This document shows, one piece after another, positions 2 to 56,600 of a stretch of 64,000 nucleotides of DNA. The position numbers and the translations under genes were made by a program. Each line of letters opens with the position of its first letter. Position 1 is the stretch's first letter. The notes under the pieces are model-generated. The model saw nothing but the letters and a program-made list of their open reading frames with translations, did no database searches and had not been told where the DNA came from. Location: contig CAXXOU010000001.1 in assembly GCA_963677495.2 (NCBI GenBank), positions 800,001 to 864,000 on the forward strand, written 5' to 3'. This DNA comes from Candidatus Cloacimonadales bacterium (GTDB lineage: Bacteria; Cloacimonadota; Cloacimonadia; Cloacimonadales; JAFGVF01).

Positions 2-976
2 GGAAACGGTGGTCATGGCTGCATCAGCTTTAGAAGAGAAAAGTTTATTCCTAAAGGTGGTCCAGACGGTGGTGACGGTGGTTATGGCGGTCACATAGTT
101 TTTAAAGGAAATAGTAACATGAATACACTACTAAATTTCAGGCACATTCAAACTATAAATGCTGAGAATGGTCAGAATGGTGGTGGAGGTAACCGTACCG
201 GAAGAAGTGGTAAAAGTGAATACATAGAAGTCCCAATCGGTACAGAGATATGGGAATTTGTCGATGGTGAGAAGATAAAAGTTGCTGATATAGTTGATGA
301 AATCGAAGAAGTGGTTATTGCAAAAGGTGGTAGAGGTGGTAAAGGAAATACTCGCTTTGCAACAGCCACTCACAGAACTCCAAGAACTGCTACTGATGGT
401 AAAACTGGCCAACAGAAAAGCCTTGAATTAGTTCTTAAACTGATGGCCGATGTTGGTCTTGTGGGTTTCCCTAATGCAGGTAAATCAACACTCTTAAGTA
501 CTGTCTCAGCTGCTCGTCCGAAGATTGCCGATTACCAGTTTACGACTCTTGAACCATCCCTTGGTGTTATTTCTGTAAGTGAATATGAAAACTTTGTTAT
601 GGCTGATATTCCGGGCATCATCGAAGGTGCTCATATGGGTAAAGGACTTGGCATCCAGTTCTTACAACATATTCAAAGAACTAAAGTTCTTCTTTTCTTA
701 TTGGATATAAACTCTCCCGATCCTCTCAAAGACTATCAGGTTCTAAAATCTGAGTTGCATAACTATGATGAGTTCCTTGATAGAAAACCTCATCTCATTG
801 CTATGAGCAAGATTGACACAGTACCGGAAGATGAATTAGAAGAGAAACTTACTGAGCTTCGTGAAATATTCTCTGAGCAGATGCATGAGGAGATTATGGC
901 AATCTCATCAGTTGCTTTCAAGAATATCAACATCTTAAAGCGTAAACTGTTTACGCTCTCAGAGAGTGATGCATAA
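2..976 (+). CDS. obgE: Obg family GTPase (5' end truncated by window edge)
   Basis: Frame is open from base 2 (GNGGHGCISFRREKFIPKGGPDGGDGG, the glycine-rich Obg fold). G1 GFPNAGKS, G2 YQFTTL, G3 DIPG. The ORF track start at 119 is internal. Confidence 0.97.
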   Translation, partial: GNGGHGCISFRREKFIPKGGPDGGDGGYGGHIVFKGNSNMNTLLNFRHIQTINAENGQNGGGGNRTGRSGKSEYIEVPIGTEIWEFVDGEKIKVADIVDEIEEVVIAKGGRGGKGNTRFATATHRTPRTATDGKTGQQKSLELVLKLMADVGLVGFPNAGKSTLLSTVSAARPKIADYQFTTLEPSLGVISVSEYENFVMADIPGIIEGAHMGKGLGIQFLQHIQRTKVLLFLLDINSPDPLKDYQVLKSELHNYDEFLDRKPHLIAMSKIDTVPEDELEEKLTELREIFSEQMHEEIMAISSVAFKNINILKRKLFTLSESDA

Positions 977-2042
977 GAGAATTAAAGCCTGGATTGCTTT
1001 CAAGAACCAGAAAGGAATCAAGTTGATAGATAAGTACAATATCTTAAATAAATGGGGTGAACCTGTAAACTACATAGGAACACCCCATTCCTCTATTCAA
1101 GAGAGCCAATTAGTACCTTATAAAGTCTCAAATATCTGGAGTAAAACCGACTTAGAGTTCGATCAGCACATCGATAAAATCTTTGAAGAACACGAGATGA
1201 AGTTCTGCTCAATTATGGATCCTGAGTATCCTGAAATACTTAAATCACTCTATTGTCCACCCATGTATCTTTTTTACAAAGGTAACCTTGCAATAGCTGA
1301 TAACTGTATTGCAATCATAGGTACAAGAAAAGTCAGCAATTACGGAGTCAGGGTAACAAACACATTAGTAGATAAGCTTGTTGATGCAGGTGTAACAATC
1401 GTAAGTGGGCTAAGCTATGGAGTGGATTCGGAAGCACATCAGGCAGCTTTAAAGAAATCTGGTAAAACAATTGCTATTCTCCCGGGTAGTATCGATTTAA
1501 TCTATCCTCCGGGTAATAGAGAGATGGCAAACAGTATAGCTGAAAATGGATTAGTCCTATCAGAATATCTTCCAGGTGAGAAGGTGGAAAGGTGGCATTT
1601 TCCGGAAAGGAACAGACTTATCAGTGGAATTTCAAAAGCAGTTATCATGATAGAAGGTCCCGAGAAGAGTGGGGCACTCATCACAGCCCGGTTCGCTTTA
1701 GAGCAAAACAGAGCTTTATATGCAATACCCGGTGATATTACACGAGAAACTGCCAAAGGTTCGAATAAACTTATTAGCATGGGTGCTACACCTGTGATAG
1801 ATATTGACGAATTGATGACTGACTTAGGTGTAAAAGTAAGTAAATCAGCGAAGACTATCTCAAAAGTAGCCAAGAACCCAATATACAAGTTAATCCTTAA
1901 AGCTGAAGAACCTCTAGATATCGATACTATGATTGAGCTCTCAGGGCAAAGCTTCGGTGAGTTATCTGCTAATCTACTTGAACTTGAAATGGAGGGAGTA
2001 ATCAAAAGAATTGCCGGTAGCAGATACACGCCTATAAAATAA
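966..2042 (+). CDS. dprA: DNA-processing protein DprA/Smf
   Basis: IAIIGTR, IVSGLSYGVD, HFPERNRLISG, SGALITA motifs; C-terminal winged helix LLELEMEG; overlaps the obgE stop. Confidence 0.95.
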   Translation: MMHKRIKAWIAFKNQKGIKLIDKYNILNKWGEPVNYIGTPHSSIQESQLVPYKVSNIWSKTDLEFDQHIDKIFEEHEMKFCSIMDPEYPEILKSLYCPPMYLFYKGNLAIADNCIAIIGTRKVSNYGVRVTNTLVDKLVDAGVTIVSGLSYGVDSEAHQAALKKSGKTIAILPGSIDLIYPPGNREMANSIAENGLVLSEYLPGEKVERWHFPERNRLISGISKAVIMIEGPEKSGALITARFALEQNRALYAIPGDITRETAKGSNKLISMGATPVIDIDELMTDLGVKVSKSAKTISKVAKNPIYKLILKAEEPLDIDTMIELSGQSFGELSANLLELEMEGVIKRIAGSRYTPIK

Positions 2043-2195
2043 ACTTTTCTAAACTCTTAACTATATATATCAATTTACATTAGTCGTTTTAATCCCCTCT
2101 CCACAATTACGAGTATTTCCCTCAAAACAAACCAAAAAGTTAACTATCTTTGTAATAATATCTTTGCAAATGTCTTTGCAATAATATATAATCAA

Positions 2196-2359
2196 TACCT
2201 AGTCTTTATCTAATCGCATCAAGAACTTCTTTGCACCCTTTAATAAGTTATACACACGATGTGGATAACTTTAGGGTTTCATAGGGAGGGTCTAGGGAGG
2301 CTAAAGGGAGGGACAAGCGAGATTCCTGGTTCTTGAAGCAGGACATAAAGGACTTGGTA
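2196..2359 (-). repeat. Dispersed DnaA-box-pair element, copy 3 (diverged, reversed)
   Basis: TTATACACA-cga-TGTGGATAA at 2248-2268; AGGGAGG at 2283/2294/2305; inverted arms 2216-2226/2329-2339 and 2196-2207/2348-2359. The core aligns ungapped to 22931-22978. Confidence 0.75.
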
Positions 2360-2499
2360 CAGACTTCTAGCAGAGATGGAAAAGAATAATAGTGAATTTA
2401 TAAACTAATTGGTAGTGCTTACTGAAGGTTCATCTTTATGGTAATTATCCGTCTACTAGTAATTAACATTAGCTTAGAATATGGAAGTAGATATAAAAG

Positions 2500-11638: not shown

Positions 11639-11670
11639 ATAGGGATGGCTAAAAGCTATCCCTATTTTTT
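11639..11670. terminator. Terminator hairpin between convergent serA and sigma factor genes
   Basis: atagggatggct-aaa-agctatccctat followed by a T-run; overlaps the sigma gene stop. Confidence 0.7.
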
Positions 11671-12657
11671 ATTATCTTCATTATCAGATTCTTTCTTTAT
11701 TTCAGAGGCAGCGGTAGGAGCTACAGGAACACCATAAGTATCAGCAATATCTCTAAACTGTTCATCAGATAAAACAGGTCTACCTTTTTCTCGTTTCAGA
11801 ATAAGATCAGCTAGATTATCGGGCATATTTTCCGGTTTACAAGCAGTAACACTACCGGGAACACTCGGCAAGTCAGTTACTCGAATATTACCTGACTCAG
11901 TGATCTCAACATTTGTAAAAAGAAAACTTGGTGTTTCTTTATTATGCTCAAAGAATACCATAGTTAATCGATAATGATTTTTTGCTAATAGTCTGATTTG
12001 ATAATCATGAATTTTCTTTATATTAAGTTTAGGAATCTCATCTGTAGAAATCTTTTTACCAAAATAAATCCTCATCTTTTCTAAAGAATCAGTTTCAACA
12101 CACTTCTTAAATTTCTTCATAAAGCGTTGAATGTTTTCATTCAGTTTTGCACCGACAATATCCTTGGAAGTACGATATCCGGTTCGGATATGGTATTCAG
12201 CGAAAATATCTTTTTTGACACGATATAAAAGCTTTTTTAGTTTGTCATAACCTATATCTTCTCGCTCTGCAATCGCCCTAATCTTATCACCAGTTGAGAA
12301 GTATATATTAATCAGACGTTTTTGCTCAGGAGGTAGAGTATTGATAATTTCATCCAAAATAGGGTCATGTTTTTTCTCTTCGATAACATGGCTTTCCGGT
12401 AATTGTTCATCCGGAATAACATCGAAGTCTTGTCCTGTAAGAGAAATCTTGTTGTTCTTACAGAAGTCAGCGATTTCGTTGTTTGTAACCTTTGTCACCC
12501 AAGTTTTAATAGCTTCAGGTTTAACTTTCTCTATATTTAAATAGAGCTTCATTAAAACAATTTGAGCTATGTCTTCAGCGTCTTCTTTTGCTCCCAACTT
12601 CTTGTAGGCTATGCGAAAAGCTACATTTTGTACTGTTGTAAAATCAATTTTATCCAT
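11662..12657 (-). CDS. ECF-type sigma-70 factor with ~165-aa C-terminal extension
   Basis: Region 2: AFRIAY..LG..EDAEDIAQ and TWVTKVTNNEIAD. Region 4: LPPEQKRLI..IAERE..KKLLYRVKK. Confidence 0.85.
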   Translation of the reverse strand: MDKIDFTTVQNVAFRIAYKKLGAKEDAEDIAQIVLMKLYLNIEKVKPEAIKTWVTKVTNNEIADFCKNNKISLTGQDFDVIPDEQLPESHVIEEKKHDPILDEIINTLPPEQKRLINIYFSTGDKIRAIAEREDIGYDKLKKLLYRVKKDIFAEYHIRTGYRTSKDIVGAKLNENIQRFMKKFKKCVETDSLEKMRIYFGKKISTDEIPKLNIKKIHDYQIRLLAKNHYRLTMVFFEHNKETPSFLFTNVEITESGNIRVTDLPSVPGSVTACKPENMPDNLADLILKREKGRPVLSDEQFRDIADTYGVPVAPTAASEIKKESDNEDNKK

Positions 12658-19717: not shown

Positions 19718-21356
19718 AAATTTGTAGTTTCCTAATAATGCTCTTTCGATGTATCTCGGAAAAGGCGTTTAAGGTATAATCTCCTGCTGATATGTATTCA
19801 GAGTTATCCATCTGACCATCCCAACGCTCTATGGTCTTGCCTTTTGGATACCATCTATACTTTGAGTAGAGTGTATAACCGTTTGTTGCTTTTATCTTCC
19901 ATTCGATGTGACAGCTAACATCTGTTGTAACAACGATTGAGTATTTATCATTCATTGGTTTAACTACAATGTTGAAATCTTTCCCATTGAGTCTTTCAGG
20001 TTCCTCAACCTTCTTTACTTTCGGTTGAGGAATCTCTTTCTTTTCGACAACCTGTTTCTCCACCACTACCGGTTTAGGCTCGGGCTTTACCTCTTCGACC
20101 TTCACAACCTCAAGCTTAGGTTCAGGTTTACGTTTCTCAACTTTTTCTACTTCAGGCATAACCTCATTTTTCTTATCAACCAAAACTTCTTCTTTTATCG
20201 GTTCTGGTGTTGGTGTAGAAGCTTCCTTATTGACGACTATTGGTTCAAATACTACTTCTCTATCACCATCGTTATAGCAGCTTTTCTTCAATCTGCCAAA
20301 GTATTTCTTAAGTAGATCTCCGTAAGAGAAAAGTGATATGCCGGCATACTCATTATCTCTAACTTCAAATATATTCTGCTCAATTTTAACTAACGGGAAG
20401 TCTCTCTTCTTGTGCCCATTAAAAGCTCTGAGCCCTACAACGATTTTATCTTTATGCTTAAGGTTCTCTGCTTTTCCCAAGAAAGATGACACCTTGATTG
20501 TGCTTGTTGAATAAACCATGGGGTAAACATAATCAACATATCCTCTATCCAACCATTCAATCCATCTTTGGGAATATTCATTAACAGCTCTATCATAATC
20601 AGAGACAACAGCTACTGAAAGAGTTTTCTCATTGTCTGCATGTTTAATCTTTTGCTGTAACTCTTTAAGAAGCAAGTTTAGCTGAAGTATCTTCCACTCA
20701 TTAAAGCTAACATTTCTCTCTTCTGCTTTAAAGTACTTCCACTCTTTCATAGCATCAGCATTGTATCCATACTTCTTACCCGGATATCTAAAATAATCGA
20801 GATGTATTCCATTCAATTCAGGATAGTTAACAACAATATCCATTATTCCATCTTTGATATAATCCTGAACAAACGGGTTTCCCGGATCGAGGAAGTAGCC
20901 CTCGCCCTTTACTAAACCCTTATCAGACTTTCCTCTCTGATTTGTGAACCATTTAGACCTTGTGAAATATATATGATTCTTTGGTAAACGACTAATATCT
21001 ATAGGCGCTGCTACATATACAGGTAACCATGCATGTACTTCAATCCCTTGTCCCTTAGTTCTATCCAGAAGGTACTGCAAAGCATCAAAAGATTTGTCCT
21101 CCAAGAGATAACTTTTGGGATCAGGATTATAGTAAGTATTATCCGTTTTGTTTGGTGTGTACAAAGCATCAGCACGGTAACGGACTTCTGCTAATATTGT
21201 ATTCTGATTGTGGAGAATTACATCCCTTACAAGATTATCAATCTTATGTGGTGTATCTATCTCCCAAGAAGTTGCCCACACAGCTCTAATCTCTTCCGAA
21301 GATAGGCTAAGTATTGCCATTAGAATTAACAGAGTTACATATATTCTCTTTATCAT
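19710..21356 (-). CDS. Secreted GHL10/DUF187-family glycoside hydrolase with Pro/Glu/Lys/Val linker and FlgD-like Ig domain
   Basis: Signal peptide; EIRAVW, EVHAW, LDPGNP, GIHLDYFRYP, PMVY; C-terminal WDG..D...SAGDY. Confidence 0.8.
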   Translation of the reverse strand: MIKRIYVTLLILMAILSLSSEEIRAVWATSWEIDTPHKIDNLVRDVILHNQNTILAEVRYRADALYTPNKTDNTYYNPDPKSYLLEDKSFDALQYLLDRTKGQGIEVHAWLPVYVAAPIDISRLPKNHIYFTRSKWFTNQRGKSDKGLVKGEGYFLDPGNPFVQDYIKDGIMDIVVNYPELNGIHLDYFRYPGKKYGYNADAMKEWKYFKAEERNVSFNEWKILQLNLLLKELQQKIKHADNEKTLSVAVVSDYDRAVNEYSQRWIEWLDRGYVDYVYPMVYSTSTIKVSSFLGKAENLKHKDKIVVGLRAFNGHKKRDFPLVKIEQNIFEVRDNEYAGISLFSYGDLLKKYFGRLKKSCYNDGDREVVFEPIVVNKEASTPTPEPIKEEVLVDKKNEVMPEVEKVEKRKPEPKLEVVKVEEVKPEPKPVVVEKQVVEKKEIPQPKVKKVEEPERLNGKDFNIVVKPMNDKYSIVVTTDVSCHIEWKIKATNGYTLYSKYRWYPKGKTIERWDGQMDNSEYISAGDYTLNAFSEIHRKSIIRKLQISN

Positions 21357-22699
21357 TTAGTCTCACTCTTTTTATCAACAGTACAACTCAGACTTCCATC
21401 ACTTAATGTGACTTCTACAGCCTCTCCAATCTCAATTGATGATATAGACTTAAGCACTTTCTGCTCTTTGTGAAGCATGGCAAACCCTCTATCAAAAGCT
21501 TTCTGAGGTGAAAGAGACGAAAGAACTGTATCAACTTCTGAAATTTTATGACGGTAACCCTGCACAATGGAGTCTCCATCATGTTTAAAGCGTATCTTTA
21601 GATCATTAAGTTTGTACTTGTAGTCCTTTAATTTGTCCTGAGTAACCTTCTGCCCAAGTAACATAAAATGTTTCTCAATAGCCCTAATATCTTCTTTCTT
21701 TTGTCTAATCCTCCTCGAGAAGTATGTCAGACGTAAAACAGCTTCATCCAGTCTTTGCTGTTTAGTTTGAAGATTACTAATCGGGTTATGTGTTTCCACC
21801 TTCCTACCCAGTTCGCTAACCTTGATTCTAAGCTTCATCAACTCACGTTTCATTACAGTGTCTATTCGTGATTGCTTATCATTCAAGGCCCTTATTAGTT
21901 CTTGTGAATCTGGCACTGCAAGTTCTGCAGCAGCAGAAGGAGTTGGAGCTCTTAAGTCGGAGACAAAGTCTGCAATTGTAAAGTCAATTTCATGCCCGAT
22001 ACCTGTAATAATCGGTATCTTTGAATTGAATATTTCTCTTGCAAGCCTTTCATCATTAAAACAGAACAGGTCTTCCTGAGAACCTCCTCCGCGACCAAGA
22101 ATTATGAGCTCTACAGTTGGGAAGTTATTGAAAAATCTCACACCTTTCACAAGTGTTTCAGGAGCAGTCTCTCCTTGTGTTAGCGCAGGATACAATACAA
22201 CTTCAACAGGTAACCTTCGCTTCAGCACATTGCATATGTCCTGAAATGCAGCACCGGTTGGTGAGGTTACAACTCCGACACGATGTGGAAACTTAGGAAT
22301 TGGTTTCTTATGTTCTTCATCAAACAACCCTTCAGAAAGAAGTTTTGCTTTCAGTTTCTCAAACTCTAGTTGTAGCAATCCCTTTCCGGATGAGTACATC
22401 TTGGTCACATTTAGCTGATATTGACCGCTAGGTTCATAAACTGTCAGTTTACCTGCAATTATGACCTTATCACCATTCTTGGGCTTGAAATCAAGATATC
22501 TATTTGCATTTCTAAAGAACACACACCGTAAAGTGCTGCTAACATCTTTAATACTAAAATAGATGTGACCTGACCTATGATGAGTGTAGTTCGCTATTTC
22601 ACCCTCTACGAATAATGATGAAAGATTACCCTCAATTATATGCTTAACATGACTGTTTATTTCACTTACTGTAAATACTTCTTCCGGTTTTATTGCCAA
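21353..22699 (-). CDS. xseA: Exodeoxyribonuclease VII large subunit
   Basis: SGHIYFSIKD, VVTSPTGAAFQD, RGGGS.EDL, IGHEIDFT, RAPTPSAAAE; start placed at TTG 22699 after GGAG. Confidence 0.95.
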   Translation of the reverse strand: MAIKPEEVFTVSEINSHVKHIIEGNLSSLFVEGEIANYTHHRSGHIYFSIKDVSSTLRCVFFRNANRYLDFKPKNGDKVIIAGKLTVYEPSGQYQLNVTKMYSSGKGLLQLEFEKLKAKLLSEGLFDEEHKKPIPKFPHRVGVVTSPTGAAFQDICNVLKRRLPVEVVLYPALTQGETAPETLVKGVRFFNNFPTVELIILGRGGGSQEDLFCFNDERLAREIFNSKIPIITGIGHEIDFTIADFVSDLRAPTPSAAAELAVPDSQELIRALNDKQSRIDTVMKRELMKLRIKVSELGRKVETHNPISNLQTKQQRLDEAVLRLTYFSRRIRQKKEDIRAIEKHFMLLGQKVTQDKLKDYKYKLNDLKIRFKHDGDSIVQGYRHKISEVDTVLSSLSPQKAFDRGFAMLHKEQKVLKSISSIEIGEAVEVTLSDGSLSCTVDKKSETK

Positions 22700-22868
22700 A
22701 ATTCTTCTCCATTCCTCACTTATTACATACCATCTATTAATATATAATAAAGTCAAGCATTCATTATTATATCATGCGTAAATCCCTAAGCTTAATCTAT
22801 TTTTTCCCCTTTTTTCTCGTTTTTAACTCCAATTTTCATGATTTTCTCCCAAAATTGCCCTGCTTCTT

Positions 22869-23020
22869 CCCTTCCAGTCCCCTGACATGGAAAGGTGTTT
22901 CAAAGGTCTCCCACAGGTGACCCTCTCGTGACCCTCTCGTGGAAAGGCTAAAGTTATTCACATCGTGTGGATAACTTGAATATTTATGGAAAACTTGTCA
23001 TAAGCACGGGACTGGAAGGG
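22869..23020 (+). repeat. Dispersed DnaA-box-pair element, copy 1
   Basis: Arms cccttccagtccc/gggactggaaggg; tandem gtgaccctctc; TTATTCACA-tcg-TGTGGATAA at 22954-22974; ~85% identical, ungapped, to 48029-48180. Confidence 0.85.
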
Positions 23021-23150
23021 TAGAGGAAGGCTCATTTCAAGTTTTTTTGTTGTACTATTCAGAAGGACTAAAGGGCATTGCAGGTAGAGAATAATTTCAC
23101 TTGCCAAAAATGTCTTTAGCTGTGATTAGTTTGGTAATGAAAATAGAAAG

Positions 23151-24053
23151 GTGTTTATGAGCTCATTTATCGTCAAAGTTTTGCCAATAATCCTAATCTT
23201 CTTAACCGGTTGGTTCACAAGAATGATTGGATTGTTCAAAATCAAAGATGGTGATTTCCTACTTAAGTTAGTTTTAAATATCACACTTCCCGCTTTGATT
23301 GTTGGGACTGCTCAAGACATTGTTTTTAAGAAAGAGTATATCTTTCTACCTTTAATAGCGGTAAGTGTTGTTTTACTAACTGCGGTTATTGCTCATATCA
23401 TTGGCAGACAACTCAAACTATCAACTCCTGCTTTAGGTAGTTTCTTATGTGGTTCAATGATTATGAACACCGGATTCTGTTTACCTTTCTTTCAAGCTGT
23501 GATGGGCAATGAAGGTGTTGTTCTTGCTAATCTTTTTGACCTTGGTAACACTTTCATGATATACACCTTTATATACATGCATGCTGTTAAGTTTGGGAAA
23601 GTCGGCAACGGAAAAACAGATTGGACTAAGCTTTTAAAGCTCCCTCCGCTTTGGGGATTGATAATCGGATTTGGGCTTAGTTTCATAGGTGTTGTAATCC
23701 CTGATTTCATACAGAAGTATCTGTTGTTGATTGGTTCACCAACTACTCCGCTAATTATGTTGTCATTAGGTATCTATTTTCATCCCCATTTAGCAAGGAT
23801 ACCCAAGGCATTAATAGCTGTACTTATCAGAATGGGACTCGGATTGGCTTTTGGGTTTACCGCAGTCAGTCTACTGAATATTCAGGGGATTGCCAGACAA
23901 ATAGTTATAATAAGCTGTGGAGCACCGATAGGGTTCAACACGATAGTGTTTGCTAACCTCGAGAGCCTTGACAAGGAGTTTGCCGCGACTATGGTATCGA
24001 TAGCCCTATTTTTAGGACTTGCATTAGTGCCACTTTTCTTGTATATTTTCTAG
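23151..24053 (+). CDS. AEC (auxin efflux carrier) family transporter
   Basis: ~10 hydrophobic segments; ITLPAL, MNTGFCLP, PLIMLSLG. Confidence 0.85.
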   Translation: MFMSSFIVKVLPIILIFLTGWFTRMIGLFKIKDGDFLLKLVLNITLPALIVGTAQDIVFKKEYIFLPLIAVSVVLLTAVIAHIIGRQLKLSTPALGSFLCGSMIMNTGFCLPFFQAVMGNEGVVLANLFDLGNTFMIYTFIYMHAVKFGKVGNGKTDWTKLLKLPPLWGLIIGFGLSFIGVVIPDFIQKYLLLIGSPTTPLIMLSLGIYFHPHLARIPKALIAVLIRMGLGLAFGFTAVSLLNIQGIARQIVIISCGAPIGFNTIVFANLESLDKEFAATMVSIALFLGLALVPLFLYIF

Positions 24054-29681: not shown

Positions 29682-29870
29682 TGTCGCCCCTGCGTTTTTT
29701 TACATTGAATAAAACAAAACCTTGTATAAAGTCAATCTTTATTGTATAAAAGCAAGCTTGAATGTACCTATAACATGTTTCAAGTGTATCCAAAATGGTT
29801 ATAAGTAGTTACCTCTTTTTACCTTCCATTTTTTCATTATGTATGTGGCTGCTGATCAATGGCATACCCG

Positions 29871-29953
29871 ACCACGGGTTGACCACGGGTAATCCACGGG
29901 TTAACCACGACTCGCGTGGTTAACCCGTGGATTACCCGTGGCTCAGCCGTGGT
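29871..29953. repeat. Palindromic array of 4+4 CCACGG units at 11-bp period
   Basis: CCACG at 29872/29883/29894/29905; CGTGG at 29915/29926/29937/29948; perfect 27-bp arms around a 5-nt loop. Confidence 0.9.
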
Positions 29954-40707: not shown

Positions 40708-40955
40708 TTATCCTCATTTATAATTGTTTTTTTTATAAGATACAATAAGCTCTACAAGTCAATATTTATTTGTCCGATATCGTGCTTGCTCTCAAAATGT
40801 GACTTCAGCATAATTCGTAAACAATGAATCCACATCAAATCTGTAACTCATCTATACCTAATCTGCCATAACGAGTTTCTAACGGGGAGCTAACGGGAAG
40901 CTAACAGGGAACATATGCGTAGTAAAAGAGTAAAATCAATATGTATTGTCTGTAT

Positions 40956-46856: not shown

Positions 46857-47123
46857 AATGATTCCTTCCCTTACATTTTTATAATCATATATATATCAAA
46901 TGATAAACTTCAGTTTAGTTACTGAGAATTTATAAAATTACACTTACAGTGTTATGGTCAAGGAGATTATTTATAACACTATGGAGTGCACCTACTTTGT
47001 AGGTGTATCTTGCCATGCGACTAGCACAACTACTCAATGCCATCTGGAGCTGTCACCTGTACGACTGATAAGGAGTTTGGGGAAATGCGTACTTCGACTC
47101 AAAGCGATGTCTTGTCTCAACAC

Positions 47124-47168
47124 CTGTACCTTTGGAATGGTTGAAAACCTTGCAAATGGTGCACTTCG
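47124..47168 (-). repeat. 45-bp imperfect-hairpin repeat, copy 1 of 5
   Basis: ctgtacctttggaatggttgaaaaccttgcaaatggtgcacttcg; identical at 47756-47800; reverse complement with 1 difference at 56399-56443 and 63809-63853; partial at 63983-64000. Confidence 0.9.
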
Positions 47169-47253
47169 AAGGGAAAGCACCTCACAATTGTAACGAAACC
47201 CGCTTCGAATGACGGAATTAGCGAATCACACTATCGTTGCAATTCACTTCTTC

Positions 47254-47334
47254 CTACTTCATCAAAAGCATTTTATTGCTTTTCTGTTCCTTATCAGTCT
47301 TCACAACTGAGAAATACACGCCTGTTGTCACAGT
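47254..47334 (-). pseudogene. Orphan 3' end (26 codons plus stop) of a FlgD/T9SS-tail secreted-protein gene
   Basis: Translates TVTTGVYFSVVKTDKEQKSNKMLLMK*, versus TVATGVYFSVVKTNKEQKSNKMLLMK* at 63643-63723; in-frame TGA two codons upstream. Confidence 0.85.
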
Positions 47335-47404
47335 AACTCAGGAGAGTCGCAGTACAACGTAGTGCCAGTGCCCTCAATTGCATAAAACTCCTTCAGCTTG
47401 TTTT

Positions 47405-47601
47405 AGCCTTGAAAAGGCGTCTGTTCAATAGCCACATGCTTTGGCATGTGGTAAACGTAATCTAAAAAGATGTAGCCCTAAAGGGGCGTAAGATTAACAT
47501 CTTTGGTGATCCGACGCCCCATCAGGGCTAATCTTGGCCGCGAACTATAACCCCAAGCGACAAGTCGCATGGGGCTATTGAACAATCGCTCTTTCAGAGC
47601 T
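47405..47601. repeat. REPIN/MITE-like nested palindrome
   Basis: Outer arms agccttgaaaaggcgtctgttcaatagcc / ggctattgaacaatcgctctttcagagct; inner arms tagccctaaaggggcgt / acgccccatcagggcta. Confidence 0.75.
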
Positions 47602-47651
47602 TAATTTTTCCATTATTATTCCTTATTTTCTCTATTACAATTCCTGCGGAA

Positions 47652-47931
47652 CACTTGGGGATATGCCCAAGAATTGGACATGTGATTCGCAAGCTATTCG
47701 GAAGAGATGAAAAACTATTGTAAGAGAGCAAAAAAATGAAAATACCATCTGCAATCTGTACCTTTGGAATGGTTGAAAACCTTGCAAATGGTGCACTTCG
47801 TAGGAAGAAACACCCCACCGTTAAAACGGCACCCCTTCAGTCTTCGCTTAAAGCTACGCCCTGACAGGCTACGAGAGGGGAATGTCCAAGAGCACCATTT
47901 CGAAGGTCTAAGGACATTCGAAAGGTAGAAT
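47652..47931 (-). repeat. ~250-280-bp composite repeat, inverted copy of 56299-56547
   Basis: Near-identical reverse complement apart from scattered substitutions and a 32-bp insertion at 47837-47868. Confidence 0.9.
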
Positions 47932-48028
47932 ATTGCCATATTTCGCTATGAGTCCAACTCCCATCCGGTCGCTATGAGCCCAGCTAACAATTTCCACTAA
48001 CATTTTCCCCAATTTTGCCCTGTTTCAT

Positions 48029-48180
48029 CCCTTCCGGTTCCGTGACTAAAATAGGTGTTTCAAAGGTTAGCCACAGGTGACCCTCTCGTGACCCTCTCGT
48101 GGAATGGCACGATTTATCCACATCATGTGGATAACTTAAATATTTATGGGAAACTTGTCTTAGTCACGGGACTGGAAGGG
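48029..48180 (+). repeat. Dispersed DnaA-box-pair element, copy 2
   Basis: Arms cccttccggttccgtgactaa / ttagtcacgggactggaaggg; TTATCCACA-tca-TGTGGATAA at 48114-48134. Confidence 0.85.
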
Positions 48181-48411
48181 ATGCCTAAAGCACAAATTGG
48201 AATTAATTACTTTAAACAAGCTAAATACAGTTGAAGACATTCTTTCTACAGGTCTATACTAATCATAAATGTTATAAATGCTATTCTTGTACTTTATGGA
48301 TAACTATATGATAACAAATTTTTTACTTGCTAATATTATTGCTTTTATCAAAATTATCGGTCAACAATTGTAATCACTAAGAAGATGTATATATATTGAA
48401 GGAGACTCTAT

Positions 48412-51400
48412 ATGCAAAAAGTAGGAATTATTTGTATATTGTTGTTATGCTTGTCAGCGATGCTTACCGCTGATACAATCGCTATTAACAGCAATTCTGA
48501 TGACTTGGCTTTAATCAATTCATCTGCAACTGAAATCCAATTCAAATATGGATTTAATGGAATTGATATAACTAATCTTTCAAATGATGATAGGAATTTC
48601 AATCAGTTAATTATCCCTGAATCTATTATTGATGGTAAAATCGGGGAACCGGGATTACCTGTTAGAAAAAAACTTATTGAGATACCTTGGGGGGCAGATT
48701 ACTCAATAAAGATTACAAATTATAAAACAAGAAGAATCTCATTAGAAAATAGGAATAAAATATATCCTGTGCAACCCTCTATTGCTAAAAATGTGGATAT
48801 TGCCGATGTTCCTTTCGAAATGAATGAATCTTTGTATAGAACTGATGCTTTTACATCATCTGAACTCGTTTCTTTGCAGGAAGTTGGTGTTATGAGAGGT
48901 ATCAGAGTTGCCAGACTTGTAATCAATCCTGTGCAATACAATCCTGTCATGAATATGATAGAAGTAAAGTATGACATTGAATTCAGTATAGAGCTTTCCG
49001 GTAGCGATATGGCTTTAACAGAGTACAATAAAGATAAAGCTTACTCTCCATATTACGAAATCGTTTATAATCGTGTAAATAGGACTTATCCTGACCATGA
49101 CTACCCTTCGAATCCTGATATGAGAAGATACCCGATAAAGTATCTCATTGTTGCAAATAGAATGTTTGAGAACACACTGCAACAGTTTATTGAATGGAAA
49201 ACTAAGAAAGGGTTTGAAGTAATTGTAGGTTATACAGATACTATAGGTTCCTCATCATCAGCAATCAAAAGCTGGTTACAAGGACATTATGATGCAGGTA
49301 CACCTTCTGATCCTGCTCCTTCATTCGCTCTTATTGTTGGTGATGTTGCTCAGGTAACTAATTACGGTACCGGTTCAAGTTCTGCCAAAGGTACTGATCT
49401 TTATTACTACTGCTATGATGGTGGTAGTGATTATGTTCCTGATATGTACTACGGACGTTGGTCAGTTACTTCAACAACTGAGCTTCAGAACATCATTGAC
49501 AAGACACTATATTATGAGCAATATCAGTTTGCTACTCCATCTTATTTAGATAATGTAACACTTATTGCAGGTGTGGATGGTACATGGAACCCTAGAGTTG
49601 GACAAGCAACAATCCAATATGGTATGAATCAATATTTTAATTCAGCTCATGGATTTGCAAATGTTTACGACTATTTAACCTCATACTCAGGATGTTTCGA
49701 TACAATGGATAGTGGTGTTGGATTTATCAACTATACTGCTCATGGCTCAACAACCAGCTGGGCAGATCCATCTTTCAGTACTTCAGATATAAGTGGTATG
49801 ACAAACTCAGGAAAACCCACTTTTGCAATTGGTAACTGTTGCGTTACAGGTCAGTATACTGAAGTAGGAACCTGTTTTGCTGAACAATTCATCAGATCAG
49901 AAGACAAAGGTGCCTACGCATATATAGGCTCAGCTCCTAATACATACTGGTTCGAAGACTTCTACTGGTCAGTAGGTGCTTTCCCTATTTCAGGTACAAA
50001 TGACGGTTATGTACCATCTTATAGTGAAACTACCTGGGGTGCTTATGATGGTGCCTTTATGACTGATTATGTTACAACCGACGCTACAAAGTTCTTAGGA
50101 AATTTAGCAGTGACTGAAGTTCATGCACAGAACTTTGAAAATCACTCTAGTGATATCTATTACTGGCAAGCTTACATGACATTCGGTGACCCTTCTGTTG
50201 TACCATATTGGACACAGGGTACTACTAATAACTATACCACTAATCCATTTATACCTATTGGAGCTTCTACATTTACTGTTAACGCAGAAGCAGGCTCCTA
50301 TGTCGCTATTTCACAAAATGGAGTATTGCATGGTGCTGCTTTAGTCGGTTCAACAGGCACTGTAGATGTTCCAATCACTGCCTTCACAGGTACCGGAACA
50401 GCTGACCTTGTTATTACTAGACCACAGAGGCAACCTGTTATTACAACTTTACCTATTCAACCTCTGTCAGGTCCTTATGTCTCTATTGAAAGTGTTACAG
50501 TAAATGCCGGTGGTGATGATGTAATCTCTAATGGTGAAATTGTATACCTTACTTTACAGCTTGAGAATGTTGGTACTTCTACTTCAACATCGACTTATTT
50601 AACAGTAAGTGAATCTGATAGTTATATTACTTTGACTGACAATAATCAATCATTTGGTACTATTGCTTCAGGTGCAACAGCTAATGCTTCGAACTGCATA
50701 GCTTTCACAGTTTCATCCAGTTGTCCTAATGACCATCCAATTGTGCTTAATACAACAATCACCGGAAGTGGTGAAACTTGGGAAAGCACAATTAATTTAA
50801 CAGCTTATGCTCCTGAGATTAGCATTGAGTCTGTAACTGTTAATGATGGAGCAAACGGCAACCTTGATCCGAATGAAACTGCTAACTTAAATGTTACAGT
50901 CACTAATACAGGTGGTGCTATAGCTACAAACTTCAACTATACTTTATCAACAACATATGGCAATATCACTATCAATGATAACCAGGAGACAACATCAGTT
51001 GCTACAGGCAGTAGCTCTGTTCTTACTTTCCCAATCACAGTTAGCTCTGCTGCTCAAGTAGGTGATACTGCTACTTTTAATCTTGCTATGAGTGGAACAG
51101 GTTATGCTAACTCTGAAAACTTCTCATTAGCTATAGGCATTATTGCAGAGGACTTTGAAACAGGTGATTTCAATAGTTACTCATGGATGATGGGGGGTGA
51201 TGGTGACTGGACTATCGCAACCTCAGCATATGAGGGTACATATTCTGCTCAAAGCGGATCTATTGACCATTCAGAAACATCAGAACTTTCAATTGATATG
51301 GATGTAACATCTGCTGATGATATTACTTTCTATTATAGTGTCTCTTCGGAGTCCGGATACGACTATTTAAGATTCTATATTGATGGAGTAGAGCAAGGAG

Positions 51401-54400
51401 AATGGGCAGGTACAGTTGCCTGGACACAAGCTTCATATCCGGTTACAACCGGTAATCATACGTTCAAGTGGGCTTATGAGAAAGATGGTAGTGTATCTAA
51501 CAATTCTGACTGTGCTTGGATTGACTCTATTGTTTTCCCTCCATGTCAGATTGTAGTGCCGGAACCAAACATTAGCCTCTCCCCAACATCACTTGATTAT
51601 GGCAATGTAGCTGTTGGTGCTACAGCTGAAGACGTTTTCACTATTTCTAATACAGGAACCTCTACCCTATCCGGTTCTATCGTAACTCCATCAAGTTATT
51701 CAGTACAGGAAGTTACAAGCCGTTCAAAAGAACACCTGATAGCCAAAACTCGTAGAAATACTATCAATTATACAGTCGATGCCGGAGCAACTAAAGACTT
51801 TAGAGTTGTGTTTGCTCCAACTGCATTACTATGTTATAACTTCGATATTACAATAAACTCAAACGATTTAGATACACCTGTAACATTGCTTCCTGTTTCC
51901 GGTTGTGGTTCATCTATTGAAGCAAGTATCAACCCTACTTCAATGTCGGGAAATATGAACATTAATCAGACAGCCACAAGAAACATGACATTATCAAACA
52001 ATGGTAATATAGATATGACATATTCAGTTAGTCTCACTGATCCTGCTCGAACTACAGGCGGACCTGACACATTTGGTTATACATGGTCTGACAGTAATGA
52101 ATCAGGTGGTCCTGTCTTTAATTGGATTACTCCAAGCACTACAAATGAGATTACAAGTTTAGGTGATGATTCAGCCGGTACTGCTACACCAATAGGTTTC
52201 AACTTCCCATTCTACGGAACGGATTACAGTGATGTTTATGTTAACTCAAATGGTGTTATTACGTTTGGTGAAGGTTCAAGTTCATACTCTAACTCAACTT
52301 TACCTAATAGTAGTGCTCCAAACAACCTAATTGCCTGGTTCTGGGATGATATGAATCCCGCTGACAGTGATTTTACAGGACATATTTATTACCAAAATGG
52401 AACAGTGAATAGCACTAATGCATTTATCATCACTTTCCTAGATTATATGGAATATGGTGGTTCAGCAACACCTGGTGATTGCGTACAAGCACAGGTTATA
52501 TTGTTTGAAAACGGAAACATCAAGATTCAATATGACTATGTTGGTACTTCAATTGATTTGACCTCAGAGTCCATTGGTATTGAGAATGCTGATGGTACAG
52601 ACGGTTTACAAGTTGCTTACAACTCTGATGGTGTAACAATTACAGATGGTTATGCTGTTGAATTCAATATTGCAAGCTCAACTACTGAATGGATTACAAT
52701 TGCACCTCTTAGTGGTACTGTTTCAGGCGGTTCATCAGAAACATTGGTTGTTAACCTTGATACTACAGACCTGGAAGCCGGTGTATATGAAAAGAATATT
52801 GAGATTGCTACAAACGACCCGGATAATCCTGTTCTAACAGTTCCGGTTAGTATTAATGTTGGCATGTCTTCCGATCCGGGATTCTCAGTAGATGTTAACA
52901 ATCTGGACTTTGGTGATGTAATGGTAGGAAATACAGGTACAGAGGTAATAACTATCACTAATACAGGTGGTGCTACTCTTACCGGTGCAATCACTACCCC
53001 TTATGCTTACACAGTCAGTGTTCATAGCAGAGATAATGGAATACTTAGTAGTAAAGAAAAGGAAAGTATATTCCAAGCTTCAAAAACAATGAATCTTAGG
53101 AATAGCCTAAACTACTCAATAAATGCAGGACAGTCTCAATCATTTGATATTGATTTCACTCCTGTAAATCCAATTGTATATAATGGTAATATCACAATAT
53201 CATCTAATGATACTGACAATACATCAACTTATATACCTGTAACTGGTACAGGTGTTGTTGCTGACATTGATGTAACTCCTACTTCTGTTTCTGTTGAAAC
53301 ATCAGTTGAAACAACATTAGATAGAACTGTGCAGATATCCAATACAGGAAACTATGACCTAAATTATAGCGTAAGCTTAGAAGACCCAAGTCGTGGTTCA
53401 GGTGGACCTGATACTTACGGTTATTCATGGATTGACAGTAATGAAGCAGGTGGACCTTCATATAACTGGATCGATATTGCTTCAACAGGAACTGCTCTCA
53501 CATTAGGAGACGATGATTCAGAAGAGGTGACATTACCATTTACATTCAACTTCTATGGTAACGATTATAGTTCAATCTTTGTTGGTTCAAATGGTTTACT
53601 CAATTTTGGTTCAGGTTCTACAGTCTACTCTGATGTAGATATACCTAATACTAATGCTCCAAATAACATGATCTGCCCATTATGGGATGATTTGAAACCA
53701 ACCGGAGCTGAATGGGGTAATGTATATACTCAAGAGGTGAACGGTGAATTTGTAGTGCAATATGAAGCTGTATCACATTATAATGGTTCTACTGTTACTG
53801 ATCCTGTAACCTTTGAAGTTATTTTTAACTCAAATGGTTCTATTAAGTTCCAGTATGAATCTGTTGGAACAGAGACTGACCACCATATCGGAATAGAGAA
53901 TAGTGACGGTACTGATGGTCTACAGGTTGCATCAAGTGGATATGCTCAAGATGGTTTAGCTGTGCTTATCCAAAGTACAGTGTCAAACCCATGGATTAGC
54001 TGTTCCTCTACAGGTGGAACTCTTACCGGTGGTGCTTCTACAAATATAACTCTTACATTTGATTCTAATGGCTTAAGTCATGGAACATATAACAAGAACT
54101 TAGTTATTACAAGTAATGACCCTGATGAAGGTTCAATCGTTGTGCCTTGTACTTTAATTTATTCAACTTCTGCTGTACCAACTATCTCAATCAGTGAAAC
54201 TTCATTTGATTTCGGTGCTGTAGCAGTGGGTAGTAGTGCAAATGAAACAATCACAATAACCAACACAGGCGGAGGAACTTTAACAGGTTCAATCACCACT
54301 CCTTCAGGTTATAATGCTGCAATTGTTAGTAAACTAAGTCTTAGAAACTCATTAAACTTCAATCTCACAACCGGTGCCAGTGTGATGTATGATATTACAT

Positions 54401-55896
54401 TCACTCCAACAACTCAAAGCACTTATAATGGTAATATTGTTGTTACAAGTAATGACAGCTCTGCCCCATCTATTAATGTAGCTGTGACAGGTTCAGGTTA
54501 CTTGCCTGCTGATATAGATGTTAATCCCACAAGCTTCAGTTTCACTGCTGCACCTGATGTAACAGATTCTCAGACCCTTACAATTTCTAACATGGGTGGT
54601 CAGGACTTAACATACACAGTTGCACCGGAAGCAAGCTCTGGTGAACTTCTAAACGAATCATTCGATTCCGGTTTACCAACAAGCTGGACTGTTGATAATG
54701 GTGGCGATGCAAGCCACACTTGGAACAACATAACAGATTATAGTGGTGACTCGATAGATACTACAAACTTCATGTTCATCGATAGTGATGATGCTGGTTC
54801 AGGAGTAGCTTTTGATGATGCATTAGTTTCACCTGTTGTACCTTGTGCATCAGCTCAAAATCTTCTCCTTGAATTCGACCAATACTTCAGATTCTACAGT
54901 TCAGGTGGCGATGAAAAAGCAGATGTTGATGTCTGGGATGGCTCAGCTTGGCAAAACGTCCTTACTATGACTTCACAAACACATGGAAGTTGGACAGCTC
55001 CTGATCATCAGAATATTGATATTACAGCTTACGCAAACGCTGGTCTTCAGGTTAGATTCAGATACTATGATGCTGATTACGACTGGTTCTGGGCTGTTGA
55101 TAATGTTACTATTACAGCAACCGGTGGTTCATCAAGCTGGTTAACTGTTGATGCAAGTTCTTCTGTTTCAGGTACTGTTTTAGCAAATGGAAACGATCAG
55201 ATAGCTGTTCAGGTTAATACAGCTGGTTTAACTGAAGGAGATTACAGTAAAGATATTATTATCACAAGTAACGATCCTGATGAAAACACAATCACTGTTC
55301 CGGTGACTCTCACAGTAACAGGAGCACAGAATGACCCAAGCTGGGACGAGCAAGTTGTTGTATATCCAAACAACACTGCAACTATCTATTGCGAAGTAAA
55401 CATTGATGGTATTCCTGCTTCCACAGGCGATGAAATAGGTGCATTCGTGAATGGTGAGTGCAGAGGTTATGGTGAAATAACTCTTATTACCAGAGATAAT
55501 GCTTATGCAACTCTTCTCATTCAGGCATCAGGTCCAAGTGAGGTTGTTAACTTCCAAATCTACGATGCTTCAAATGATGAAGTTTATGATGTAGAGGATA
55601 CATGTGAGATTACACCTGGTGTTGTTATTGGTGATGCTGTAGAACCTGAAGTTCTTAATGCAGTTACTACTATCCCTTCACCACAAGATCTAGCAATCTC
55701 AATTAATGGTGACCAATTGACTCTTAGCTGGACTGCTATACCATCTGCTACCGGATACAATGTGTATGTATCTGATACAAATGATTTCACCGGTATCACA
55801 GCAATCCCTGTTGCTACTAATAGCTGGACAGGTTCATCAACAGACAGATATAAATTCTTTATGGTGACCGCTGTGAAAGGACAAGCAACAAGATAA
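48412..55896 (+). CDS. Giant Lys-gingipain (Kgp)-like peptidase C25 with repeated Ig-like and adhesin-like modules
   Basis: Signal peptide; GEPGLP prodomain; INYTAHGS...WADP, AIGNCC, GAYAYIGSAPNTYWFEDFYWSVGA; repeated SNDPD Ig modules and two GGPDTFGY..DS modules. Confidence 0.9.
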   Translation: MQKVGIICILLLCLSAMLTADTIAINSNSDDLALINSSATEIQFKYGFNGIDITNLSNDDRNFNQLIIPESIIDGKIGEPGLPVRKKLIEIPWGADYSIKITNYKTRRISLENRNKIYPVQPSIAKNVDIADVPFEMNESLYRTDAFTSSELVSLQEVGVMRGIRVARLVINPVQYNPVMNMIEVKYDIEFSIELSGSDMALTEYNKDKAYSPYYEIVYNRVNRTYPDHDYPSNPDMRRYPIKYLIVANRMFENTLQQFIEWKTKKGFEVIVGYTDTIGSSSSAIKSWLQGHYDAGTPSDPAPSFALIVGDVAQVTNYGTGSSSAKGTDLYYYCYDGGSDYVPDMYYGRWSVTSTTELQNIIDKTLYYEQYQFATPSYLDNVTLIAGVDGTWNPRVGQATIQYGMNQYFNSAHGFANVYDYLTSYSGCFDTMDSGVGFINYTAHGSTTSWADPSFSTSDISGMTNSGKPTFAIGNCCVTGQYTEVGTCFAEQFIRSEDKGAYAYIGSAPNTYWFEDFYWSVGAFPISGTNDGYVPSYSETTWGAYDGAFMTDYVTTDATKFLGNLAVTEVHAQNFENHSSDIYYWQAYMTFGDPSVVPYWTQGTTNNYTTNPFIPIGASTFTVNAEAGSYVAISQNGVLHGAALVGSTGTVDVPITAFTGTGTADLVITRPQRQPVITTLPIQPLSGPYVSIESVTVNAGGDDVISNGEIVYLTLQLENVGTSTSTSTYLTVSESDSYITLTDNNQSFGTIASGATANASNCIAFTVSSSCPNDHPIVLNTTITGSGETWESTINLTAYAPEISIESVTVNDGANGNLDPNETANLNVTVTNTGGAIATNFNYTLSTTYGNITINDNQETTSVATGSSSVLTFPITVSSAAQVGDTATFNLAMSGTGYANSENFSLAIGIIAEDFETGDFNSYSWMMGGDGDWTIATSAYEGTYSAQSGSIDHSETSELSIDMDVTSADDITFYYSVSSESGYDYLRFYIDGVEQGEWAGTVAWTQASYPVTTGNHTFKWAYEKDGSVSNNSDCAWIDSIVFPPCQIVVPEPNISLSPTSLDYGNVAVGATAEDVFTISNTGTSTLSGSIVTPSSYSVQEVTSRSKEHLIAKTRRNTINYTVDAGATKDFRVVFAPTALLCYNFDITINSNDLDTPVTLLPVSGCGSSIEASINPTSMSGNMNINQTATRNMTLSNNGNIDMTYSVSLTDPARTTGGPDTFGYTWSDSNESGGPVFNWITPSTTNEITSLGDDSAGTATPIGFNFPFYGTDYSDVYVNSNGVITFGEGSSSYSNSTLPNSSAPNNLIAWFWDDMNPADSDFTGHIYYQNGTVNSTNAFIITFLDYMEYGGSATPGDCVQAQVILFENGNIKIQYDYVGTSIDLTSESIGIENADGTDGLQVAYNSDGVTITDGYAVEFNIASSTTEWITIAPLSGTVSGGSSETLVVNLDTTDLEAGVYEKNIEIATNDPDNPVLTVPVSINVGMSSDPGFSVDVNNLDFGDVMVGNTGTEVITITNTGGATLTGAITTPYAYTVSVHSRDNGILSSKEKESIFQASKTMNLRNSLNYSINAGQSQSFDIDFTPVNPIVYNGNITISSNDTDNTSTYIPVTGTGVVADIDVTPTSVSVETSVETTLDRTVQISNTGNYDLNYSVSLEDPSRGSGGPDTYGYSWIDSNEAGGPSYNWIDIASTGTALTLGDDDSEEVTLPFTFNFYGNDYSSIFVGSNGLLNFGSGSTVYSDVDIPNTNAPNNMICPLWDDLKPTGAEWGNVYTQEVNGEFVVQYEAVSHYNGSTVTDPVTFEVIFNSNGSIKFQYESVGTETDHHIGIENSDGTDGLQVASSGYAQDGLAVLIQSTVSNPWISCSSTGGTLTGGASTNITLTFDSNGLSHGTYNKNLVITSNDPDEGSIVVPCTLIYSTSAVPTISISETSFDFGAVAVGSSANETITITNTGGGTLTGSITTPSGYNAAIVSKLSLRNSLNFNLTTGASVMYDITFTPTTQSTYNGNIVVTSNDSSAPSINVAVTGSGYLPADIDVNPTSFSFTAAPDVTDSQTLTISNMGGQDLTYTVAPEASSGELLNESFDSGLPTSWTVDNGGDASHTWNNITDYSGDSIDTTNFMFIDSDDAGSGVAFDDALVSPVVPCASAQNLLLEFDQYFRFYSSGGDEKADVDVWDGSAWQNVLTMTSQTHGSWTAPDHQNIDITAYANAGLQVRFRYYDADYDWFWAVDNVTITATGGSSSWLTVDASSSVSGTVLANGNDQIAVQVNTAGLTEGDYSKDIIITSNDPDENTITVPVTLTVTGAQNDPSWDEQVVVYPNNTATIYCEVNIDGIPASTGDEIGAFVNGECRGYGEITLITRDNAYATLLIQASGPSEVVNFQIYDASNDEVYDVEDTCEITPGVVIGDAVEPEVLNAVTTIPSPQDLAISINGDQLTLSWTAIPSATGYNVYVSDTNDFTGITAIPVATNSWTGSSTDRYKFFMVTAVKGQATR

Positions 55897-56298: not shown

Positions 56299-56600
56299 AT
56301 TGTACCTTTCGAATGCTCTATTGACCTTCGAAATGGTAGTCTTGGACATTCCCCTCTTGTAGAGGGGTGCCGTTTTAACGGTGGGGTGTTTCTTCCTACG
56401 AAGTGCACCATTTGCAAGGTTTACAACCATTCCAAAGGTACAGATTGCAGATGGTATTTTCATTTTTTTGCTCTCTTACAATAGTTCTTCATTTCTTCCG
56501 AATAGCTTGAGAATCACATGTCCATAACTTGGGCATATCCTCAAGTGATGCTCAAGTGTTCCTCAAGGATTGCTTAGGTTGTTCACAAGATTTGCAATAG
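56299..56600 (+). repeat. Composite repeat (45-bp hairpin, REP-like palindrome, 11-bp CTCAAG array)
   Basis: Inverted copy of 47652-47931; CTCAAG-like units at 56540/51/62/73/84/95. Confidence 0.85.

Follow-up and report, generated by a model that had tools for sequence, protein, structure and literature searches.

An intergenic 11-bp lattice element carrying inverted pairs of DnaA-type boxes, and a linked small-protein gene family, in a Cloacimonadales bacterium

Introduction

Three intergenic sites in a 64,000-nucleotide stretch of a Candidatus Cloacimonadales genome (contig CAXXOU010000001.1, positions 800,001 to 864,000; hereafter the window, meaning the whole stretch that was analysed) carry an inverted pair of DnaA-type boxes at a fixed distance from an axis of symmetry and beside units repeated every 11 bp. 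They raise the question of what kind of element this is: a site of replication control, a spreading repeat, or a structured nucleic acid. The initial annotation had described three copies and considered both a DnaA-loading or titrating site and a structured RNA or single-stranded DNA hairpin. Here, the element is followed through its own genome (G000; 3.41 Mb in 4 contigs, C1 to C4), through its genus and through the phylum Cloacimonadota, to which the Atlas taxa assign it. The element is real and undescribed, while the mechanism set out below is a proposal.

Copies in the window

The features referred to throughout are the following, with genes listed for context only.

2188..2367, minus strand: element copy 3, subfamily B (word CCTA); lattice 2334-2280, axis 2278/2277, arm complementarity patchy
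2248..2268, no strand: inverted DnaA-box pair of copy 3
22855..23034, plus strand: element copy 1, subfamily A (word CGTG), with fuzzy ends; left arm about 22855-22887, lattice 22888-22942, axis 22944/22945, right arm about 22998-23034
22954..22974, no strand: inverted DnaA-box pair of copy 1, TTATTCACA-N3-TGTGGATAA, occupying two 11-bp lattice cells
48015..48194, plus strand: element copy 2, subfamily A; lattice 48048-48102, axis 48104/48105
48114..48134, no strand: inverted DnaA-box pair of copy 2, each box a perfect TTATCCACA
29853..29930 (approximate), no strand: box-less 11-bp lattice element core, CCACGG family (34 copies, one upstream of a 150-aa paralog)
40853..40930 (approximate), no strand: box-less 11-bp lattice element core, CCGTTA family (21 copies)
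56512..56590 (approximate), no strand: box-less 11-bp lattice element core, CTCAAG family (3 copies)
966..2042, plus strand: dprA, flanking copy 3
21353..22756, minus strand: xseA, left flank of copy 1
23151..24053, plus strand: membrane transporter (PF03547), right flank of copy 1
48412..55896, plus strand: peptidase C25 multidomain protein, right flank of copy 2

The three box pairs lie where they had been annotated, three matches standing against 0.05 expected and none of 100 shuffles reaching three. Copies 1 and 2 agree at 129 of 152 positions (84.9%) in an ungapped alignment, and copy 3, placed in register with copy 1, is identical to it at 87 of 180. CCCTC-type units are phased at 11 bp in the same register in the copies, and the gene contexts of copies 1, 2 and 3 are divergent, divergent and convergent, all as first described. 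The copy number and size given at the time, three copies of about 150-165 bp, hold only in that these copies are real; the genome contains 77, each of about 180 bp with fuzzy ends.

Two neighbouring features of the window may be recorded here. The 1.2-kb gap to the left of copy 2 (46857-48014) contains a pile-up of several further kinds of repeat, REP-like hairpins and a short remnant of a lattice among them, and positions 11662-12657 hold a 331-aa ORF with an N-terminal sigma-70 region 2 and a long C-terminal part that has no Pfam match at the cut-off used.

Copy number and anatomy of the element

The exact pair occurs at 58 sites of the genome, all with a spacer of 3 bp and none with spacers of 0-2 or 4-11. 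When up to two mismatches are allowed, 81 sites are found, of which 77 fall into five subfamilies (B 36, A 24, D 7, C 6, E 4) and four are chance matches, and a profile search of the genome adds three further worn or split pieces. The 77 elements are intergenic without exception and occupy all four orientation contexts.

All of them share one geometry, consisting of an 11-bp lattice of subfamily words, an axis 19.5 bp from TTATNCACA-N3-TGTGNATAA, and arms that are complementary at the level of the family. Set in 11-base rows from the first box, the five subfamilies form a single register, with an A-tract at -66 relative to that box, a lattice of three to five cells that each combine a common frame with a subfamily word (CGTG in A, CCTA in B, CAAGG in C, TTACT in D, TTGAT in E), the axis at -9.5, two boxes that fill exactly two cells, and an inverted arm from +44. 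The word cells sit left of the axis and the two DnaA-box cells right of it, the outer cells making up the inverted arm. The distance of 19.5 bp between axis and box-pair centre, originally read from three copies, marks the best axis in 5/5 subfamilies (complementarity 0.47-0.68, runner-up at most 0.39) and recurs in the elements of three sister genomes (18, 7 and 10 elements), the geometry being maintained over unrelated sequences and four genomes. Conservation is concentrated in the lattice and boxes; the arms vary more and fade gradually at their ends. Words are replaced in concert across all repeats of a family, and by sequence they are unlike DnaA boxes. The description as a multi-copy, geometry-locked element with DnaA-type sites is thus supported at the sequence level.

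The claim of co-varying arms survives in part: it holds between subfamilies but weakly within them, and the arms of copy 3 pair in patches only. Own-arm complementarity exceeds that of shuffled partners in A (27.35 vs 26.64 of 40, p = 0.015) and in B (21.12 vs 19.43, p = 0.0007), with no such excess in C, D and E (p 0.70-0.86). Variants of the left and right arms are mostly decoupled, with rho of about 0-0.15 across the core against 0.36-0.66 within arms (one exception at 0.34), and linkage is gone within 30-50 bp, inside a single arm as well, which makes the copies patchworks. A single crossover point in the core was considered and ruled out, since linkage also decays with distance within an arm.

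These arms bear directly on the hairpin reading, in which the element would be a structured RNA or single-stranded DNA hairpin. The A copies fold well (z -1.1 to -10.4), and some within-copy arm covariation exists in A and B, as that reading would have it. However, many B copies fold no better than shuffles (z about 0), and there is no G-U bias, as none of the subfamilies has an excess of G-T over A-C when the given strand is read (54 vs 45 in A; 79 vs 110 in B, the latter a weak excess on the other strand, p = 0.03). Moreover, Rfam gave 0 matches in the window, and conservation peaks in the unpaired lattice and box pair, not in the arms. We therefore regard a structured RNA or hairpin as very improbable.

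A wider class of 11-bp lattices

The box-bearing elements belong to a larger set of arrays. Period-11 arrays number 275 in G000, compared with at most 52 for any other period between 6 and 24, and only 2 of the 275 lie within long ORFs. They sort into 15 families of at least two copies, 66 of the 275 include the box pair, and about 200 box-less elements are built on the same lattice. One box-less family, with the word CACTG (67 copies, e.g., C1:113453), is biased towards the terminus, opposite to A and B. In another, the CCCGAG word family, the DnaA-box pair is present in the sister genome G003 (L182, L188) and absent from G000, indicating that gain or loss of the pair is modular.

The pair is multi-copy in all four genomes of the genus (75, 58, 55 and 14 copies), while the other 228 of the 232 genomes hold 0-2 copies. 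Of 34 sites in relatives, 3 have a G000 pair element near the matching flank, one of the three through a paralog only. No plasmid matched the element. The box pair alone appears in 86 viral stretches; among 80 examined, three have a period-11 score of at least 20, as do three at period 12, and none has the gene described below. The pair is therefore a DnaA-type motif of general occurrence, unlike the lattice.

DnaA boxes and replication control

The possibility that these are host-domesticated DnaA control sites, acting in datA-like titration or DARS-like nucleotide exchange and selected through replication timing, is the one most directly suggested by the boxes. The elements hold 94 of the 154 perfect DnaA boxes of the genome (61%) and 134 of its 484 TTWTNCACA boxes. 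The consensus boxes sought in titration sites are thus present as sequence, and the same boxes flank the genome's dnaA, 4.3 kb past the window. In the sister genus, the sole copy of the pair stands just upstream of dnaA at 7/7 loci, and in G000 a worn N3 pair is found upstream of dnaA too. Because the same pair geometry, with the spacing of the elements, recurs in the dnaA operator of relatives, the boxes are likely DnaA-binding sites, as predicted from their sequence. According to PMC11317965, E. coli DnaA favours boxes 2-3 bp apart and loses binding at 4 bp; the pair spacing agrees with the present one, but the motif is modelled there as tandem boxes, whereas those of the element are inverted.

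The region C1:868070-870000, 4-6 kb past the end of the window, comprises dnaA with boxes on both sides and, downstream, a run of TAC repeats followed by an AT-rich stretch. We take the TAC run to resemble DnaA-trios, and the region is likely oriC.

Placement along the chromosome gives a divided answer. In G000, the elements are origin-proximal relative to intergenic gaps (p = 0.003; p = 0.012 with the other contig order), although the terminus window in one of the placement tests was set post hoc, when the depletion had already been seen. Such a bias is what titration favours in E. coli (PMC12371093). In the sister species G001, however, the 12 elements are terminus-proximal (p = 0.002), so that the origin bias is not replicated but reversed, and no orientation bias with respect to the replichore was detected. 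Genomes of the genus have 14-75 copies and others about 0-2, positions are not conserved, about 200 lattices have no boxes, and the CCCGAG family exists with boxes in G003 and without them in G000. A dedicated titration site is accordingly doubtful, given the reversal in G001 and the confinement of the multi-copy pair to one genus, and that same confinement makes a conserved host regulator unlikely.

The resemblance to DARS-type loci, on which the initial annotation had drawn, is partial. E. coli DARS1 and DARS2 likewise are non-coding sites with two oppositely oriented DnaA boxes, a likeness of arrangement that leaves their relative polarity aside, but according to PMC6868365 they have three boxes, with boxes I and II 5 bp apart, and are single-copy at conserved positions. 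The present elements have two boxes 3 bp apart and 77 copies at positions not common to the sister genomes, and by geometry and position are not a DARS. Taken as a whole, selected DnaA control sites are an improbable account of the element.

A linked family of small genes

Two of the elements adjoin similar small ORFs, which proved to belong to an unannotated family of 22 paralogs of about 150 aa in G000 (a 23rd match, at E = 0.015, was left out). For four of the five subfamilies (A, C, D and E), a copy precedes a paralog by 220-480 bp, the paralog being a different one in each case; the nearest copy of subfamily B lies 1.15 kb from a paralog, behind other repeats. Linked genes of G000 include the following.

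C2:33661-34113: A-linked paralog
C4:692506-692958: C-linked paralog
C4:777579-778031: E-linked paralog

Across the genus, 11 family genes have a pair element upstream, and in 10 of the 11 the lattice comes first with the boxes towards the gene, at -219 to -366. Among evaluable genes of the sister genomes, those with an upstream pair element number 4 of 5 (G002), 1 of 11 (G001) and 1 of 2 (G003).

Raw enrichment upstream of family genes in G000 is weak, both for the pair (5/22 vs 63/640, p = 0.065) and for any array (12/22 vs 239/640, p = 0.12), because elements are everywhere. The pattern of word families is more specific. The nearest upstream elements of paralogs belong to 10 different families out of 12, compared with 6.6 when shuffled (p = 0.005), and to 8 different families out of 9 at a shorter distance (p = 0.035), and rare families are over-represented upstream of paralogs (p = 0.0008-0.005). 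The CCGTTA family has no adjacent paralog in G000. Between genomes, protein pairs of at least 60% identity share words (10 pairs, 0.27 vs 0.107, p = 5e-5), while a Mantel-type comparison of protein distance with word similarity over all pairs is flat (rho 0.04, p = 0.32). Matching words can also arise by co-inheritance alone, without binding.

The association extends beyond the genus. Among 138 family loci of the order, an upstream period-11 array is present at 38 and a downstream one at 0, compared with 7 loci for periods 10, 12 or 13, and arrays also stand upstream of the same gene family in further families of the phylum. Over 705 bp, two A cassettes of G000 show 10 differences, their near-identity running from the core of the element as far as the stop codon; they sit on different contigs between unrelated flanks, and their depth in the sequencing runs is doubled. 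This implies that the element was duplicated jointly with the gene, as a unit whose end is the stop codon.

Several observations concern the arrangement of the genes. Five pairs of paralogs stand back to back, 4.4-8.1 kb apart (C1:774894-782349, C3:291415-297694, C4:777579-783024, C4:1465698-1474728 and C4:1498355-1504079), and each includes one member of a mostly acidic, mostly array-less clade; in the genomes G014 and G076, two paralogs are arranged in tandem. These back-to-back and tandem arrangements hint at a two-protein complex. In G027 (L149-L178), with 37 family matches in one genome, close copies share about 200 bp upstream and diverge immediately past the stop codon, which suggests a recent burst of a gene cassette. 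A TATA-N-TAGAGG-like motif is found upstream of 6 of the 22 paralogs of G000, compared with 95 of 2158 other genes, and is possibly the promoter of the paralogs.

The ~150-aa protein

Of 151 genomes of the phylum, 96 contain the family, which forms 359 clusters at 50% identity. Its conserved columns are K2, G14, R33, Y72 and L109, with no conserved histidine. Searches with 21 and 137 members returned no informative match in Pfam, PHROG, NCBIfam or PDB sequences and no Y1/HUH-type match in Pfam, NCBIfam or PHROG, and the protein matched no transposase or recombinase. DUF6266 (PF19781), for which no literature was found, had no Pfam match in 137 members and came up in an Atlas match only, with a score of 0.82, to a cluster in which 11% carry this domain. 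Against phages and viral contigs, single-protein queries of low sensitivity gave no match.

A structure model built from 137 sequences (pLDDT 96.6) consists of three short strands followed by five helices. Foldseek with the first model retrieved nothing at E <= 0.001 and VIA-align with both models nothing at Z >= 5, an absence of match that does not imply a new fold. The best VIA-align row was the TraM N-domain, a ribbon-helix-helix domain (Z 4.0, rmsd 2.4, 49 aligned), and many ribbon-helix-helix rows appeared at Z 3-3.6, all of them non-significant. Array-linked paralogs are more basic than the others, with a net charge of +3 vs -1.5 in the genus (p = 0.0014) and of +5 vs -1 overall, kin not being independent in these comparisons; two pair-linked paralogs are neutral or acidic. 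The 142-protein tree is a quick version for descriptive use only. Longer relatives of 348-405 aa in G040 (L160-L176) carry the 150-aa domain at their C-terminus, and the region before it resembles a second, degenerate copy of its N-terminal strands.

Mobility and genome rearrangement

Bacterial MITEs and mosaic repeats such as Correia, RUP, BOX and BIME are short, intergenic and multi-copy, with complementary ends and mosaic neighbours, and the present element could be of the same nature, moved by an unrelated transposase or recombinase, with the 150-aa gene a passenger linked by descent that does not read the lattice. The element shares their complementary terminal arms, intergenic placement and lineage-specific positions; the genome offers candidate movers in its multi-copy genes, which by sequence we take to be IS21, IS3-like, IS110-like and RAYT-like; and linkage alone would account for the matching words, the raw enrichment being non-significant.

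The ends of the element, however, do not behave accordingly. Terminal inverted repeats are present as family-level arms about the fixed axis, but they are degenerate and lack sharp ends, conservation being confined to the interior. In neither A (23 copies) nor B (33 copies) were 3-9-bp direct repeats in excess at any of the end pairs, although later rearrangement could have parted target duplications. Comparison of the arms with 102 flanks of IS-, RAYT- and four-helix-type genes of this genome revealed no IS end match; the flank matches were IS21 in or beside an element, or an element beside the gene. IS21, whose presence in the genome is also reflected in 17 istB-like matches, is inserted in the second DnaA box of one B copy (C3:196532-198971) with a 7-bp duplication. 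No clean empty site with exact ends was seen, whether by synteny with G001, where one syntenic empty gap was too divergent for the ends to be placed, or in contigs, and contigs of four sequencing runs, all from one sample, contained no empty sites or circles. In addition, a passenger gene would predict neither one paralog per word family, rare ones included, nor the presence of arrays before the same genes in other families of the phylum. We consider a MITE-like repeat with a passenger gene unlikely.

The elements coincide with breaks in gene order. Synteny was evaluated against 2.0 of the 3.1 Mb of G001 (1139 reciprocal best hits, median 81% identity), so that 14 of the 77 elements enter the counts. 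Synteny is retained across 1 of 14 gaps that contain a pair element, 14 of 63 that contain another lattice and 65 of 110 that contain no element (pair vs element-free, p = 2.7e-4). Among gaps of at least 350 bp the figures are 1/14 vs 29/54 (p = 0.002), and the contrast survives gap-size matching, becoming weaker when split by orientation. A test for same-family crossover partners was weak (7 of 20 vs 3.4, p = 0.024), the orientation fitting a simple crossover in 3 of the 7 by our reading. The association with breakpoints could also come from permissive gaps in which many repeats pile up.

Such an association, together with decoupled left and right arms and with a length and phase that are fixed while the sequence is free, might point to architecture or recombination sites for a common host protein (a nucleoid protein, gyrase, or DnaA filaments at 11-bp steps), the words being drift. 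That the words are replaced in concert per family and track a paralog speaks against this explanation, as do the decay of linkage within an arm without a single crossover point and the dissimilarity of the words to DnaA boxes, and we give it little credence.

Comparison with known systems

Three known systems share parts of this organization, and the element belongs clearly to none of them. REPIN/RAYT systems, as described in PMC8049555, also combine short, non-autonomous intergenic repeats of inverted halves with a cognate gene alongside and cluster with other repeats. They consist of two short REP hairpins rather than a lattice of about 180 bp with 11-bp repeats and DnaA boxes, and RAYTs are single-copy and vertically inherited, whereas the present gene moves and multiplies (22 paralogs in G000, 37 matches in G027) and its product has no Y1/HUH transposase match. 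The second is the ParR-parC system of plasmid R1, in which, according to PMC2241845, a site of about 160 bp (the 159-bp parC) with 11-bp repeats in two sets around a central interruption lies upstream of a small autoregulated gene and binds one dimer per 11-bp repeat, a model borrowed below. The parC repeats are direct, confined to a single locus and accompanied by the ParM ATPase, in contrast to the inverted halves and tens of chromosomal copies found here, and no recurring neighbour or partition ATPase was seen beside the cassettes inspected; the ribbon-helix-helix resemblance of the ~150-aa protein reaches only Z <= 4.0. Finally, the outside end of Tn5/IS50 provides a mobile element with a host DnaA site, but according to PMC3347997 this is one box in a short transposase-binding end, while the present pair is internal and inverted, and neither a transposase nor a target duplication was found. 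A literature search, covering neither subscription papers nor bioRxiv supplements, yielded no published description of the element, consistent with the earlier impression that it is not of any described family.

A proposed mechanism and its implications

On balance, and with somewhat more confidence than doubt, we read the element as a REPIN/RAYT-like repeat with its cognate gene, of ParR/parC-like geometry, that has adopted a DnaA operator. This reading builds on what was observed above, namely the shared geometry and number of copies, the restriction to one genus, the linkage to a gene and joint duplication with it, the mosaic copies and the association with breakpoints, and extends it to binding and copying as follows. 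The window copies would be the solo form of a dispersed repeat that also exists in a second form, immediately upstream of a ~150-aa gene. Each paralog would recognise its own word in the manner of ParR on parC, placing one protomer or dimer at every helical turn along a single face of the DNA, and, once bound to the lattice, would regulate its own gene. DnaA would take the box pair, equivalent to two cells of the array. The resulting complex may help the element to be copied into further intergenic sites by recombination or repair pathways of the host instead of by cut-and-paste; such a route fits the lack of target duplications, the fuzziness of the ends, the mosaicism of the arms and the placement at breakpoints. 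The DnaA pair would have been adopted in one genus from the geometry of the dnaA operator, tying the element to the replication cycle, and the soaking-up of DnaA would be a side effect and not its purpose.

A bolder version, possible but put forward only tentatively, is that the element represents a transposase-less class of self-spreading DNA, in which a small protein of undescribed fold coats an 11-bp lattice, with paralog-specific words, and drives the copying of its own cassette and of hundreds of gene-less lattices, a DnaA operator in one lineage licensing or timing the copying. If this is true, a selfish repeat owns about 60% of the perfect DnaA boxes of the cell and marks the rearrangements of its genome.

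If the link to the protein fails, an unusual but ordinary MITE-like repeat family remains. As it stands, an unannotated protein family gains a specific and testable candidate DNA target, and about ten paralog-word pairs in one genome offer natural specificity variants. The concentration of 61% of perfect DnaA boxes in repeats likewise provides a natural test of whether chromosomal DnaA titration, in the sense of PMC12371093, is selected or merely tolerated. More broadly, these repeats may reveal a way for DNA to spread without a recognisable transposase.
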